Shown here: piece after piece, positions 11,838-26,398 of the stretch | Layout: every line of letters begins with the position of its first letter | How positions within the stretch are numbered: the first letter of the stretch is position 1 | From: Moniliella sp. 'wahieum' | Lineage: Eukaryota | Length of the DNA stretch: 64,000 bases | NCBI GenBank assembly: GCA_003971905.1 | Contig: RSEE01000014.1 | Span: 806,001 to 870,000 of the forward strand | Direction of reading: 5' to 3' | Position numbers and translations under genes: made by a program | The notes under the pieces: generated by a model | The model's database searches: none | The model's input: only the letters and a program-made list of their open reading frames with translations | What the model was told of the DNA's origin: nothing

Positions 11838-12044
11838 TTCAAAGCTGCAAGTGGCGCATGCTGTGCTCGGGTTGGGTGCGAGCGGTTCTTATTTCACGCG
11901 TCACGACTCCGCCGGCCCCACTGAAACTGATAGCCGGCATCCGGCTCGCTTCTGTGCGGATTCCGGGGACCAGCGGGGCCTGCTGCTGCTTCATGGCCGC
12001 GCCTGCTCGTCCTTGCGCCCCACCACCGCTCCCCTCCCGCTGCC

Positions 12045-13038
12045 ATGAGCCCTCCCTCCGATGCTGCCCGCCGCCTGGATGCCACCACCCGCCACTTGAC
12101 CAGGCCGGCCCGCACCTCGGAGTACGCCGTCCATCATGTGGGCGCCGCCCACACCCTCGGTACGTCCTGCCCCGGCCCCGCCCCCCAACTCGCTCCCAAT
12201 GCTTCTCTGACCGCGCCGCCCCAGACTACCGCGTGTTTGTAACCAACGGCCAGGGCCAGGCGGTCTCCCCCTTTCACGACATCCCCCTCTATGCCGATGC
12301 GAGCCAGCGGGTGCTCAACATGGTGGTTGAGATTCCGCGGTGGTCCAATGCCAAGCAGGAAATTAGCAAGTCGGAGCCGCTCAACCCCATTCTCCAAGAT
12401 ACGAAGAAGGGCAAGCTGCGCTTTGTGCCCAACTGCTTCCCCCACAAGGGGTACATTTGGAACTACGGTGCCTTCCCCCAGACCTTTGAGGACCCAGCCC
12501 ATGTCCATCCCGATACCCATGCCAAGGGGGACAACGACCCTCTGGACGTGTGCGAAATTGGACAGCAGGTGGGGCACACGGGCCAGGTCAAGCAGGTCAA
12601 GGTACTGGGTGTGATGGCTCTGCTGACGAGGGCGAAACGGACTGGAAGGTGATTGCGATTGATATCAACGATCCACTCGCGCCCAAGCTCAATGACATTG
12701 ACGATGTCGAGACCCACCTACCGGGCCTGCTTCGCGCTACCCAGGAATGGTTCCGCATCTACAAGATCCCAGATGGCAAGCCGGAGAACCAGTTTGCCTT
12801 TTCGGGCAAGGCAATGAACCGTGCCTACGCCACTGAGATCGTGGATGAATGCTACCAGGCTTGGACTCATCTCGTGGAGGGCAAGTCAGACCGGGGCGAC
12901 ACTTCGATTGCTAATGTGACCCTGACAGGCACTCCTGGCTTTACACCCAACATGCCCGTCCCGGCTGCCAACCCTCAACCACCCGCGCCCATCGACGCTT
13001 CGATCGATAAGTGGTTCTTTGTCTCCCCAAGCAACTAA
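12045..13038 (+). CDS. IPP1: Family I inorganic pyrophosphatase with N-terminal extension
   Basis: [53 protein letters not shown] and [14 protein letters not shown]; intron 12160-12224 joins HTL/DYRVF. Confidence 0.96.
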
Positions 13039-20170: not shown

Positions 20171-23100
20171 ATGTCAGGGGGATGTGGGGGGCTGCCGGCC
20201 CGCCCGCCGCCACCCGACCACCTCCGCCCCCCACGGTGGCGATGAGCGTCCCCGACGATCCGGCCGCCGCGCGCCCGCCCGCGCCTCCCCCCATGCCACC
20301 CACATGCGCTTCTCCTCCTCCCACATGGAGTCCTCCGTCACGCGCCTCCTCGTCGCAACCAAGATGCTGCTCGAGAGCCTGACCAAGTGGGCCGCCGGCG
20401 CCTGCAGCGAGGAGCATGTCAGCGACATCTATGTCCGCCTCGGCAACGACTTCAACGCCGCCCGCCTTGCGTTTGGGTCCTACGGCATCTCCATGGCCGA
20501 CTCGAGTCTGTGCCCGACGATCTGCGCGCCTGTCTCGAGGCATGCCTGTCCGAAGAGGCTTCTCAGGCCGCCCTCGATCACCATCTGCCCCAAGTGCGGG
20601 AGATTGTGGTGGGTCTGTTGCAGGGCCTCAAGTCGAAACAGGCGCTCTACAAGGAGTACCTTTTCCTCCCGTCAGTCGCGCAACGCGCTTCCATCGACCT
20701 CCCCTCACGCCTCCGCTTCTGCGCATTCGCACCACGCCACGCAAAGGTCCACGTCCAACGTCTCCTCCCGCTCTGCCGTCGGCTGCTGCACCGCCCTCCT
20801 CTGCATCCATGATGGCCTCGGATGTCCAGGCGGCGCGGCGCGAGTCGTATCAGCTTCTCGACAGGCTCATCACAGCCGCTCCAGCACGTCTGGCGACGCG
20901 TCCGCTCGCCGCAGCGTCATGGGTCCCCGTTCGCCCCCCGACATGACGCGCCATCAGTCGGCCCAGCAACCCGCTTTTCCGGCGCCGCCCAACCCGCCCA
21001 CCTGGAGCGGCACACTCTGGTAGATGAGGCAATGCCCCCATATCCTGCCCCCTCTGGGACTAGCCCCCCCGGGCGGGATAAGACGCTGCCGCCACCACCG
21101 CCAGGGCAGGCCCTTCGCGTCATACCTCCTCAGCGTCCATGTCCTCAGTTTCGGTGGCGCGCACCCGGCGTGCCCACCACCAGCACTCGTCTTCCTCTCT
21201 CTCGACTACCCACTCGGTTCGGGGCCGGTCGCCTCTGCCAACGATCGAGGCAGACATGCCGATGTCCTTCCCCCGCACACCTGAACCGGAAGACGATGGG
21301 TCGGACCCATCTCTGCGTGCCCTCAAATCGCGCGATGCACTAGAGCGGCGTGCATCCAAACGATTCTCGGCGTATACCCTTAACAAGATGGGCATCTCTC
21401 CCTCGGGCTTCAATAACATGAGTCCAACGGCCAAACGTAGTACACGGGCTCAGACGGCACCCAACATGCCTGATCTGTCACCTCAAAAGCTCACTTCCAC
21501 CCTGCCCGAGGTGCCTGGCCCCCAAGAGCCTATTCCCGCGCTGCCTTCCTCAGGAACAGCGGTCTCGCCAGGACCATTTGCTCGTGGCCCAAGAGTGCCA
21601 AGCGACAACCATCCATCAGCAGTGCCGGTTTGCCTTCTTCCATTCCTGGCCCTGGAGCTGAAACGCTGCCTGAGGCAGCTCGCGTGCTCCCCACCATTGG
21701 GATGGAAGATGCATCCCCTCCTCTTCCTGCTCCAACAACTGACGAACCTGCTTCGCTGGGATCGGAGGAGACTGACTCTTCCGATCCCACTCCTTTCTCC
21801 ACCCTCCCTTCCGATGGCACTTCACCAGAAGGCCAATCTCCCCTTCCCACTCTGGCCGCTGAAGCTGGGGCGACACCCAAGGCCTTTGACCACCCTGACC
21901 TTTCCCCGGCCGAGACGCTTCATTCGATCGATGTATTTGTTCAGCTCGGCCGGCTGACCAAGAAGGCACCTTGAATCTGGAGCCAGACTCGCCTTTGACC
22001 ATTGCGCGACTCCGGATGTTGTTTGTCGATCGGTTTGGCTACTCTCCTGGGCAAGACGATTTCCCTCCCATCTACATCAAAGACCCGTCCACCGGCGTCG
22101 AATACGAATTGGAGGACTTGAACGATGTTCTTTCGGGCACACTTTTGACGCTCAATATTGATTGTAAGGTACCCTGCTCTCACTCACAGTATCATTGCTA
22201 ACTTTGCATGGACAGCGTTGGACCAAGTACGCCAGCACCTCGATGTTTCACTGGGAACGCTTACGCGTGAACTCCGCGAGCTCAAGGCGGCCTTCAATGA
22301 ACAGAAGGAGCGAGCACGGGAGGTCCCGACCAGTCAACAGCTCCAACTCTTACTCTCGAGCAAGTAGCAATGGCAGTTTGCCCTCGGAACTGTTGTCGGG
22401 GCCAATGGGGGCAACCCCTTAGCGCGAACGAGCCCTCGCCCGAGAAAAGATCTCCAATGAGGACTTTGCGCAGCGGGGCAGCGGGTCGCACTACTAGCTC
22501 GTTCCGCTACCGTTTCGCGTCCGTCCCCGAAAAATGAAAAGGATGGAGACCCGACGGCTTCCGCCGCCGTCGCTGCCGACGCATCCAGCTCTGAGGCGGT
22601 GGCAGCGACTGAGGAGCCTGGGTCCAACTCGATCGTCTTGTCGGGCACTGCAATGGCCGAAGACCTCCAGCGGCAGTTTGAAGCGGTCCAGGGGTTACGT
22701 CAAGAGATGGCCGTGATGAAACAAGTCCAGCGGGAATTTAGTGGCGACGTGGGCGGCCTGTTGCGTGATTGCGGGAGCAAAACCAGCGGGTGCGGGCGCT
22801 CGTGTCCCAAGATGCTCCGGTCCAGCGTTCTTTTATTGAAGCGGGCAAGGTGCAGGTCGATACACAATCGCAAGAGGTTTTGACGTTGGTAGAGGACCTG
22901 CAAGATACGGTGGATGATCTCAAGATGGACGTGATCCAGCGCAAGGTAACCCCCGTCCTCAGGCGCTCAAGAAGATCCATGCCGACATTGCCGCGGCCAC
23001 GCAAGGACTCGAGCAGCTGGAGCGCTATGTTCAGTCGGTCAAGCCGGCTTGGAAGAAGACGTGGGAACAGGAGCTCAAGGTGATTGTTGAAGAGCAAGAA

Positions 23101-24057: not shown

Positions 24058-26398
24058 TCACCTGGACGAGGTCTTGCTCTTGGCACTTTTCTTGCTAGCT
24101 TTCTCTAGCGACTTTTGAATCAACGAAGCATCCTCTCCTCGTTGAACAGCGACTCGTCAGCCTTGGCGTGGGCGGTCTTCTTGTTCTTGCGTGCCTGCGT
24201 GCCCTTGGCTCCTCCCGAGCCAGCACCAAAGCCGGTCATCTCCGGCTCCTCCTCCTCTTGCTTGGCCGAGGTGTGAGTCTTATCCCGCGGGCTCACTTTG
24301 AGCTTGGCAACAAAGAAGCCGTCGAGGTTGTGCACGTGCGGGAAGATGCGCTTGGTGAGCGGCATCTTGGCATCAAACTTCTTGCCCCGGAAGAGGGGAA
24401 GCCATCCCGGCCAAAGTCGACGCCCGTGGGGACAAGCTTAACATTGGGCCGCTTGCGCAGCGCATACTCGACCACCTCCTCGTCCTCCTCCACCAGGACC
24501 GAACAGGTGGAGTAGACTACGTACCCTCCCGTCGGCGAGCGGGTATTGATCGAGTCAATCGCACACAGGATCAGCTGCTTTTGCAAGTGAGTGAGCAGTT
24601 GCATATCGCGTTCGCCCTTGTTGGTTTTGACACTGGCATCTTTGCTGATCACCCCGGTGCCCGAGCAGGGCGAGTCAAGGAGGACACGGTCAAAGCCTCC
24701 ATGACCTTGGGGAACATGCGGCCATCGTAATTGCAAACCACGTTCTTGCATCCCAGCCGGTGCACATTGGCCGTCAACGACTTGATGCGCGCCTTGTTGG
24801 CGTCATTGGCAAACACAACCCCCGTGTTCTGCATCAGTGCCGACAGGTACGTCGACTTGCCTCCCGGAGCGGAGGCCATGTCCAGCACCCGCTCTCCCGG
24901 CTGGGGAGCAAGCGCAATGCAGGGAAGGAAGGACGAAGCGGCTTGGAGCATGTACTGGCCCGCCAAGTCGGGCGTAGCCCCGACCGGCACCGACGACTCA
25001 AACACTTGCAGTCCCACCTTGGACCACTCCCCCAGAGGCTCCAGCGACACACCCCGGTTGATCAGGGCTTGGGCCAAGTCCCTCCTGCGGGTACGAAGGG
25101 TGTTGGTGCGGATGGTAACCGGGCGGGGCATCTCGTTGGCCTCGAAAAACTCCAGCGCCTACAGCATGAAAAATCAACGTCAGTACACGGTCCCAGGGCG
25201 GGGATTCGGCTTCAACCACGTACCTCGGCGGGGGCAAACAAGTCAAAAAACTTCTCGGCCAAAAACCGGTTGTAGCCATAGTAGGAGCAAATGTCTTCCA
25301 ACAACATCTCCACATACTCGGCACGGCTGCGCGCACCCGTCATGTCCGACTTGTCAAAGTTCTTCCAGTTGGTCAGGACCGTCACCGTCTCCTGCATGCG
25401 CTGCTGGACAATCTTGAGATCGGTGCCCTGAAGCTCGGCGATACTTTGCTCGCATCTTGAAGGGTGGGGAGCATCATGTCTTCGTCCTCCTCAGCCGCCG
25501 AACTGTCCTCCGCGACTTCCTCTTCGTCCTCCTCTTCGTCCGCCCCATCCAAGTCAAATTCGTCACCACCCTCCTCGTCCTCGTCCGACGAGCCGTCCAG
25601 CTCATCCGCATCATCACCAGCATCCAAGAAGGCCATCTGCTCCGAGGTGAGCGACTCGTCATCGTCAGCTTCCTCTTCTGCTTGACGAGAGCAGCATCCT
25701 TCTTGGCCTTCTTGACCTTGGTCTTTGTCTCAGACTTGGACTTGCCCTTCTCCTCCTCGTCCGAGTCAAGCGAGTAGCCTTGCGACTTCAGCAGTTGCTC
25801 CAGGCGTGCAATCTCTGCCAACGCCTTCTCCCGCTTCTTGCCCGTTAGCTTGCCGGTATCGGGCAGGTCAAAGCCAAGCTGGGATACGAGCGCATCAGGA
25901 ACCTCCTCGGATCCCGTGGCGGCGGCCTTGGTCTTCTTGGCCTTCTTTGTGGGAACAGGCTCCTCTTCCTCTTCCTCTTCCTTCTCCTCTTCCTCTTCCT
26001 CTTCTCTTCCTCTTCCTCTTCCTCTCCTCTTCCTCTTCCTCTTCCTCCTCATCGTCTACCTCAACGTCCTCGTCCTCGTCGCTTTCCGCGTCTTCCTCCT
26101 CCGAGTCGGCGGGCGCATTGAGAGCCTGCTCCAAAGCACTGGGGTCAAAATCGCCAAACCCGTGCTCCTGCTCATCGTCATCCTCCTCGGCATCGGACAG
26201 GAGCGGGTCGTCCTTGCCAGGCTTGTGGTTCTTCTTGCCACCGCGGACACCGCGGCGGGCCTTGGCCTTGAGAGCGCCCTCGTCGTCGACAGGGGTGGCG
26301 GGGGCCTTGCGCTTCCCGCCAGCAAGGGCCGAAGGCTTGCCGTTGGCGGCGGAAATGGGAGCAGGGGCGGCTTGCTTGTTGCGTTGGCGGCGACCCAT
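24058..26398 (-). CDS. NOP2: 25S rRNA m5C methyltransferase Nop2
   Basis: MGRRQRNKQ start, acidic N-terminus, PRPVTIRTNTLRTRRRDLAQALINRGV, RVLDMASAPGGKS, FDRVLLDSPCSGTG, VYSTCS and PHVHNLDGFFVAK. Confidence 0.95.
25960..26050. repeat. (TCTTCC)n microsatellite encoding poly-Glu within NOP2
   Basis: Visible tandem TCTTCC/TCC units. Confidence 0.85.

Follow-up and report, generated by a model that had tools for sequence, protein, structure and literature searches.

We asked to which compartment the soluble inorganic pyrophosphatase of a smut-related basidiomycete is directed by the N-terminal extension that precedes its catalytic domain. The gene (12045-13038, + strand; IPP1 type, family I soluble) lies in the window, as we call the whole 64,000-nucleotide stretch of DNA analysed here. 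Its first exon encodes the nonapeptide RLDATTRHL, which the original prediction read as a perfect PTS2 peroxisomal import signal on a pyrophosphatase that may be peroxisomal or dual-localised. The question matters because the disposal of pyrophosphate in peroxisomes is, to our knowledge, unsettled; we know of a resident pyrophosphatase as a proposal, never shown in fungi.

The gene model from which we worked consists of two exons and one intron, and an upstream ATG lies ahead of it:

11993..11995, + strand: upstream ATG, out of frame with exon 1, in the context TGCTTCATGGC
12045..12159, + strand: exon 1, 38 codons plus 1 base (115 nt), with the start codon at 12045-12047 in the context GCTGCCATGA
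12160..12224, + strand: intron of 65 nt, phase 1, with a GTACGT donor, a CTGAC branch site and a CAG acceptor
12225..13038, + strand: exon 2, the catalytic domain of a family I soluble inorganic pyrophosphatase, with the stop codon TAA at 13036-13038

Splicing joins the exons as ...HTL-D-YRVFV, in agreement with orthologues, and the closest relative that includes exon 1 (P0009) carries an unspliced insert at the position of this intron. In a Pfam scan of 150 of the 170 window ORFs of at least 135 residues (those up to ~56 kb), PF00719 was found on both halves of the domain (E=3.1e-25 and 6.7e-16; 89.2 and 58.9 bits; cut-off 23.5), covering profile positions 1-80 and 79-152. Yeast Ipp1 structures matched exon 2 over its first 133 residues at E=1e-59. 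All catalytic and metal-binding motifs of family I pyrophosphatases are there and aligned with those of yeast PPase and relatives, and identity to fungal Ipp1 was 78-86% among the matches listed in the catalytic-domain search. In the tree, the window's protein formed a clade with P0005 and P0009 (support 99) on a somewhat long stem, sister to Ustilaginomycotina Ipp1. The Ppa2 sequences formed a clade of their own (support 99), and the window's protein grouped with the Ipp1 type.

The frame of the ATG at 11993 runs without a stop across the unspliced intron and continues as the catalytic frame; this ATG is relevant only for transcripts that start upstream of it. One public sequencing run, with 0.09 of words in common, contained mostly the pyrophosphatase genes of other fungi and left exon 1 without cover. 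We also considered a C-terminal PTS1, encoded directly or reached by readthrough, and rejected it: the protein ends in -SPSN, the stop context is TAA TTG and not TGA CT, and the peptide past the TAA ends in ...ICCSA, without a PTS1-like tripeptide.

At the other end of the protein, two features stand ahead of the catalytic domain:

12045..12119, + strand: N-terminal presequence, residues 1-25, with five Arg, two Asp, a net charge of +3 and a maximum hydrophobic moment of 0.76
12072..12098, + strand: nonapeptide RLDATTRHL, residues 10-18, the conserved core of the presequence, with the four PTS2 anchor residues and Thr at position 5

Sequence and translation bear out that the ATG at 12045 opens a pyrophosphatase with RLx5HL at 12072-12098. 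Residue 40 of the spliced protein, the first of exon 2, falls opposite residue 15 of 1huk_A, a yeast PPase chain. The protein is thus ~24-25 residues longer at its N-terminus than yeast Ipp1, in line with the ~24 originally proposed. The presequence is rich in Ser and Thr. Exon 1 alone gave no match to solved structures at E values up to 10. RLx5HL arose in 0.06% and 0.24% of shuffles of the protein's own first 25 and 38 residues, respectively, and the loose consensus in 0.3% and 1.7%. Such a motif is rare per protein and yet expected somewhere in a proteome; it is therefore conservation that decides.

The ATG at 12045 is the only one in frame in exon 1; upstream of it the frame is free of stops as far as 11934 and offers no ATG either. 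The translation thus agrees with the earlier observation that no second in-frame Met stands before the catalytic domain. An internal Met is likewise missing in P0009, in P0123 and in the PPA2-type proteins. Near-cognate codons occur in frame at 12075 (CTG), 12096 (TTG), 12102 (AGG) and 12138 (GTG), none of them in a strong context. Because the extension follows the sole AUG, every molecule should carry it. If this is the sole pyrophosphatase gene, the essential cytosolic pool must consist of the fraction that escapes import or of the product of a weak near-cognate start. If a second, extension-free gene exists, the gene in the window would be a paralogue dedicated to the organelle, as PPA2 is. 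The long stem of its clade is compatible with such a paralogue and is not proof of one.

We then examined the extension across Ipp1-type relatives. Searching with the catalytic domain yielded 3993 relatives; the set examined was the best 120, enlarged by the cluster members of ten. In this set, 141 proteins had a recognisable FHD[IV]P anchor; they comprised 83 short forms, 2 truncated ones and 56 extended ones with at least 44 residues before the anchor. The PTS2 consensus [RK][LVI]x5[HQ][LAF] was present in 33 of the 56 extended proteins, whereas 1000 shuffles gave 0.96 on average and 5 at most; these rows are not independent, as many come from Ustilaginaceae, and they reduce to 21 distinct 14-mers. 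The distinct 14-mers derive from Ustilaginales, Meira, Jaminaea/Microstroma, Exobasidium, Rhizoctonia, the yeast Wickerhamiella and further lineages. Within the nonapeptide, R is invariant at position 1, H (14) and Q (7) are the only residues at position 8, and L stands at position 9 in 20. A related motif, R-[STA]-x-x-[ILV]-x-x-H-[LF], occurs in filamentous ascomycetes (Penicillium, Orbilia, Fusarium, Cladorrhinum) and departs from the consensus at position 2. The conservation of RLx5HL proposed as a check of the original prediction was thus borne out in many lineages, with only an H/Q switch at position 8.

Conservation is also seen at close range. The N-terminus of P0009 (MSHLSNAARRVSSTARHL / MSHLSNAARRVSSTARHLAHVASTTAEYKLHQVG) is identical to that of the window's protein at 22 of 39 residues (E=5e-10), and the start Met, the AARR stretch and the R, H and L anchors are all kept. 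Taken together, this conservation argues that the nonapeptide on the Ipp1-type extension is not a product of chance. The short forms do not prove that an extension is absent, because within one 90% cluster the gene models differ only in the Met that was chosen (296 versus 328-332 residues). In the chytrid and Mucoromycota orthologues P0017, P0078 and P0099, an upstream Met opens a presequence-like extension without the nonapeptide, which suggests that the long form was organellar before the nonapeptide arose.

A search of 1.84 billion representatives with Ipp1 of U. maydis brought up divergent relatives, among them PPA2 of Huiozyma naganishii (P0194). The best 120 relatives of this protein were taken as the PPA2 set, which includes S. 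cerevisiae, Kluyveromyces, Lachancea, Eremothecium, Cyberlindnera, Wickerhamomyces, Babjeviella and Spathaspora; the anchor was found in 112 of them. The consensus [RK][LVI]x5[HQ][LAF] was present in 49 of these 112 presequences, all from Saccharomycotina, against a shuffle mean of 2.2 and a maximum of 7. Typical forms are RLLMTKSHL, RLNLTQQHL, RLSQTSRHL and RLNSIARHL. Thr, the residue at position 5 in the window's nonapeptide, is also the commonest there among PPA2-type sequences (30 of 47 distinct 14-mers). One PPA2-type presequence (P0394, GRLSQTSRHLST) is nearly identical to the extensions of basidiomycete Ipp1 (RRLAQQTRHLST).

Indeed, when 19 full-length sequences of both types were aligned with MAFFT, all nonapeptides fell into one block, column for column. 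R10 and L18 of the window's protein were invariant in all 19, including S. cerevisiae Ppa2 (ERLKQTLNILS). Sorting of 109 PPA2-type presequences gave 49 with the consensus, 8 with H/Q followed by I/V/M, 37 with a hydrophobic residue at position 8 and 15 with nothing of the kind. R-L-x5 followed by a hydrophobic position 8, as in S. cerevisiae RLKQTLNIL, thus accounts for 37 of 109, against a shuffle mean of 8.7. In S. cerevisiae and its group the motif is kept even though His8 gave way to Ile, Leu or Val. We found no earlier description of this apparent link between the Ppa2 presequence and the Ipp1 nonapeptide in our literature search.

In the tree, long branches lead to Ppa2 and to four divergent paralogues, which calls for caution over long-branch effects, and the split between Ipp1 and Ppa2 is not dated. 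Because the tree cannot place the origin of Ppa2 from an Ipp1-like gene, inside fungi or earlier, the case for homology of the presequences is the short alignment itself. Divergent second pyrophosphatases were also seen in some other fungi (Colletotrichum, Neurospora tetraspora, Exidia and Mycena); those of the basidiomycetes Exidia and Mycena are without a presequence. They have no bearing on the lineage of the window.

S. cerevisiae Ppa2 is experimentally mitochondrial (PMC5011043, in a passage citing Lundin et al. 1991), and according to the same passage yeast PPA2 is needed for respiratory growth and mtDNA maintenance and IPP1 is essential. An oleate transcriptome paper lists PPA2 with the weakest score and is uninformative here. 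With belief and doubt evenly poised, we favour the reading that the extension would be an ancestral organelle-targeting presequence of fungal pyrophosphatase, with the mitochondrial matrix as its main destination. The matrix is put first because it is the sole destination with experimental support in a homologue, S. cerevisiae Ppa2. Part of the protein may in addition be taken up into peroxisomes by Pex7, since the nonapeptide carries the four PTS2 anchor residues. The mitochondrial and the PTS2 readings are not mutually exclusive.

In mechanistic terms, the presequence would form a short amphipathic helix that draws part of the enzyme out of the cytosol. The same nonapeptide, at the same place before the catalytic domain, would serve the long Ipp1 of many Dikarya and the organellar paralogue Ppa2. 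In most Dikarya, one gene would give rise to a long form with the presequence and to a short cytosolic form from a second Met; in budding yeasts, the cytosolic and organellar jobs would be divided between IPP1 and PPA2. Import into the mitochondrial matrix would be the main job of the presequence, and Pex7 could carry some enzyme into peroxisomes thanks to the four anchors. In the lineage of the window, the cytosolic pool would come from incomplete import, from another start codon or from a second gene.

Some properties of the extension suit mitochondrial import. It has a net charge of +3, five Arg and a hydrophobic moment of 0.76, but also two Asp in its first 12 residues; it aligns with the presequence of an experimentally mitochondrial protein, Ppa2. 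Processing peptidases cleave mitochondrial presequences by the rules R-2, R-3 and R-10; the site R16-H17-L18/T19 fits the R-3 rule only in part, as the +1 residue does not match. This mismatch and other properties speak against a mitochondrial presequence. The acidic residues D6 and D12 and a Pro-Pro near its start are atypical of one, and the sister protein P0009 has no Asp. The sequence of mitochondrial presequences is usually unconserved. Here, the sequence is conserved in precisely the PTS2 pattern, with H or Q, an alternation that is typical of PTS2, at position 8 in 21 of 21 distinct Ipp1-type motifs, and this restriction points to a sequence-specific receptor such as Pex7.

This brings us to the closest alternative, a serious if tentative possibility that falls somewhat short of an even chance: RLDATTRHL would be a working PTS2 through which Pex7 moves part of the pyrophosphatase into peroxisomes, the rest staying cytosolic, either alone or on top of mitochondrial import. 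The peroxisomal enzyme would clear the pyrophosphate that acyl-CoA synthetases set free. The nonapeptide fits [RK]-[LVI]-x5-[HQ]-[LAF], lies within the first 40 residues and is conserved in orthologues; the restriction to H or Q at position 8, the near-constant Leu at position 9 and a degree of sequence conservation that is unusual for a mitochondrial presequence all favour this reading. Acidic residues are tolerated in the x-positions of other consensus matches, for example RLDRVSQQL of P0012. The PTS2 consensus as given in PMC7710942 also has a hydrophobic residue in the middle of x5. At this position 5 the window's protein has Thr, which counts against a PTS2 and makes the word "perfect" too strong.

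A PTS2 on a fungal pyrophosphatase had in fact been predicted before, although the original prediction named none: Stiebler et al. 2014 (PMC4207609, text to Fig. 6B) report an N-terminal PTS2 on U. maydis Ipp1 from a web-tool prediction, and a legend in the same paper marks an alternative Met start for this protein. The same source cites pyrophosphatase activity in rat liver peroxisomes and describes peroxisomal pyrophosphatase isoforms in animals that arise via readthrough or splicing, both of which lend the PTS2 reading support. A 2022 review (PMC9549241) repeats the readthrough cases only. A nonapeptide similar to that of the window, RISSLAAQL of U. maydis Pgd1, sends GFP into peroxisomes, according to Kremp et al. 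2020 (PMC7214817); its position 5 is Leu. Our literature search for a PTS2 on fungal pyrophosphatases returned only Stiebler et al. 2014 and the citing review, with no experiment on a fungal enzyme, which weighs against the PTS2 reading. A search for alternative-start mitochondrial isoforms of fungal Ipp1 found nothing, and a Pichia paper was uninformative.

Also against a PTS2 is that the same element stands on yeast Ppa2, a mitochondrial enzyme, and that the S. cerevisiae group keeps it with Ile, Leu or Val at position 8, residues that the consensus bars; the element can therefore be conserved without a need for Pex7. Two histories would fit: Pex7 was never what kept the element conserved, or a double signal was halved in this group. 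From the proposal of a peroxisomal or dual-localised pyrophosphatase we thus retain a coding, conserved extension with fitting anchor residues; the proposal had left a mitochondrial presequence out of consideration, and, with the same nonapeptide present in Ppa2, peroxisomal import is one possible reading among others and not the best supported.

The halved-signal alternative can be taken further, in a form that we consider rather unlikely. The nonapeptide would then be an ancient two-in-one signal, a PTS2 inside a mitochondrial presequence, and through Pex7 the organellar pyrophosphatase of most Dikarya would be divided between mitochondria and peroxisomes. This would apply to the long Ipp1 isoform in basidiomycetes and in filamentous ascomycetes, and likewise to Ppa2 in the majority of budding yeasts. 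With the change of His8 to Ile, the peroxisomal half would have been lost in the Saccharomyces group, and in the lineage of the window one start codon would supply three compartments by partial import alone.

We further considered whether the gene is intact, since the assembled sequence breaks the frame within the catalytic motif region:

12625, + strand: apparent 1-base deletion, at which ...VLGVMALL (frame of 12227) and DEGETDWKV... (frame of 12625) share G 12625

Were the break real, the gene would be an inactivated pseudogene and the signal a relic, which we hold to be very improbable. Relatives have one more base at this site and an unbroken frame. The 137 residues downstream of 12625 are fully conserved and free of stops. 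Similar breaks occur inside conserved domains of housekeeping genes elsewhere in the window, in a NOP2-like methyltransferase near 24700 (...NYDGRMFPKVM before the break and GGFDRVLLDSPCSGTGV after it) and in a BUD6-like gene near 20503, and the sole near-identical contig, from one public run, stops exactly at 12625. Because of the conserved, stop-free tail, the breaks in the NOP2-like and BUD6-like genes and the contig end at 12625, we favour an assembly error over a pseudogene as the most likely source of the deletion. The extension is nevertheless read in the correct frame, because exon 1 matches its closest relative over its whole length. We also tried an intron at 12602-12630 as a means of removing the frameshift and rejected it, as its 29 nt are too short and conserved catalytic residues would be lost with it.

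Finally, that the motif arose by chance on a mis-called or non-functional N-terminus, with the true start downstream, is hardly credible and close to refuted by conservation: a loose four-position match is expected in some members of a proteome (0.3-1.7% per shuffle), but the start Met, the AARR stretch and the R, H and L anchors recur in P0009 and the motif in many lineages, and downstream there is no in-frame ATG, just weak near-cognate codons, before the catalytic domain.

Our preferred reading, an ancestral presequence directed mainly to the mitochondrial matrix, bears on more than this gene. By itself, the gene in the window adds one case to the PTS2 prediction made for U. maydis Ipp1, and its interest comes mainly from the link to the Ppa2 presequence and from the loss of the second start codon. 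Of two outcomes, one is that the PTS2 prediction in print mistakes a conserved mitochondrial presequence for a peroxisomal signal, and the other is that the mitochondrial Ppa2 family has a peroxisomal branch that has been overlooked. A lineage that lacks the second start codon offers a natural test of whether one polypeptide can reach two or three compartments.

Among known systems, the closest is Ipp1 of U. maydis (P0130; XP_011392431.1), the same enzyme with a like extension, which has RLSQTARQL at the same place and shares Thr5 with the window's protein. Its predicted signal has Q at position 8 where the window has H. A second Met before its catalytic domain (…LIRTMASAQDF…) permits a short cytosolic form, whereas the window's protein and P0009 have no such Met. 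Ppa2 of budding yeasts (S. cerevisiae YMR267W; P0348 and 119 relatives) belongs to the same family, has the presequence element R-L-x-x-T-x-x-H-L in 49 of 112 cases and, like the window's protein, lacks a second Met, so that the whole protein bears the presequence. In contrast to the window's Ipp1-type protein, however, it is a separate, fast-evolving paralogue with ~50% identity to the Ipp1 type and a clade of its own, and RLKQTLNIL of the S. cerevisiae enzyme has Ile at position 8, outside the PTS2 consensus, where the window has His. The cytosolic Ipp1 of S. cerevisiae (PDB 1huk, 1m38, 1e6a and others) matches the catalytic domain (E=1e-59 over 133 residues) and has no extension, whereas the window's protein has ~25 extra N-terminal residues. 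The peroxisomal pyrophosphatases of animals described in PMC4207609, namely C. elegans pyp-1 and mammalian PPA1/PPA2 (readthrough) and Drosophila Nurf-38 (splicing), share the proposed purpose of the window's protein and reach the organelle via PTS1, whereas the window's protein ends in -SPSN, without a PTS1. Pgd1 of U. maydis, as presented in PMC7214817, is a housekeeping enzyme of a smut with a PTS2 on an N-terminal extension and dual localisation; its extension is reached from non-AUG codons and marks a minor isoform, whereas that of the window's protein follows the only AUG.

Run X1, the only public sequencing run found, was compared with the pyrophosphatase gene. One near-identical X1 contig (196 letters, 1 difference) covers window 12431-12625 and ends at the frameshift site, where a single letter of it is left unaligned. 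The remaining 18 X1 pieces that aligned come from pyrophosphatase genes of other fungi. Reading frames are broken at two further places in the window, and another open frame begins upstream of the pyrophosphatase gene:

11993-12652, + strand: upstream open frame, starting at an out-of-frame ATG at 11993
20328-20654, + strand: Aip3p/Bud6 N-terminal domain, break near 20501-20504
24416-24918, - strand: NOP2/RsmB-type methyltransferase gene, break near 24700

The catalytic domain of the NOP2/RsmB-type gene is divided over two frames, …NYDGRMFPKVM in one and GGFDRVLLDSPCSGTGV… in the other; in this essential gene the break looks like a frameshift of one base. The Aip3p/Bud6 N-terminal domain is likewise shared by two overlapping frames, divided at profile position 59 where an intron would not fit, and this break is apparently a second frameshift. 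The frame from ATG 11993 runs without a stop across the unspliced intron and then enters the catalytic frame; in a genome of 59% GC, it is probably open by chance. An intron-retaining transcript begun 5' of this ATG could give an alternative 77-residue Pro/Arg-rich N-terminus.

A Pfam scan of ORFs showed ordinary housekeeping gene content in window 1-56000, and no PEX7-like gene was found among the ORFs scanned there. The genes in this interval were:

EH-domain protein, fibrillarin, a tubulin, Rpn3, eIF3i-like, F-box protein
methyltransferases, Bud6, Nop2, Mak10, IQGAP-like RasGAP, KRE6/SKN1 glucan-synthesis protein

The R-10 rule describes two-step mitochondrial cleavage. In five Penicillium Ipp1 long forms (P0040, P0055, P0080, P0098 and P0111), position 7 of the PTS2-like motif is Arg, lying exactly ten residues ahead of the first residue past the second Met (R-H-F-S-S-x-x-P-x-M, then S/T), a spacing that fits this rule. 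In P. lagena, Arg replaces the motif His (RRL), so that the PTS2 pattern is broken and the R-10 spacing retained. The Meira-like proteins P0126, P0127 and P0129 carry three in-frame Met codons (MLIRVSSQLR-M-SSTPIRRLSQHAKHLSSSINSVASSSN-M-ANEF…), from which three isoforms could be made; the public Meira miltonrushii model, which is named cytoplasmic, takes the third Met as its start.

The divergent pyrophosphatase P0176 has an N-terminus, MLRTIQNLRAAGLR…, that is a classic presequence start, and further contains …SRTLSQQTRAMSYKTR. This segment looks like the basidiomycete RRLAQQTRHLS segment; unlike the latter, however, it lacks both anchors, R1 and H8, and has the second Met at position 9.
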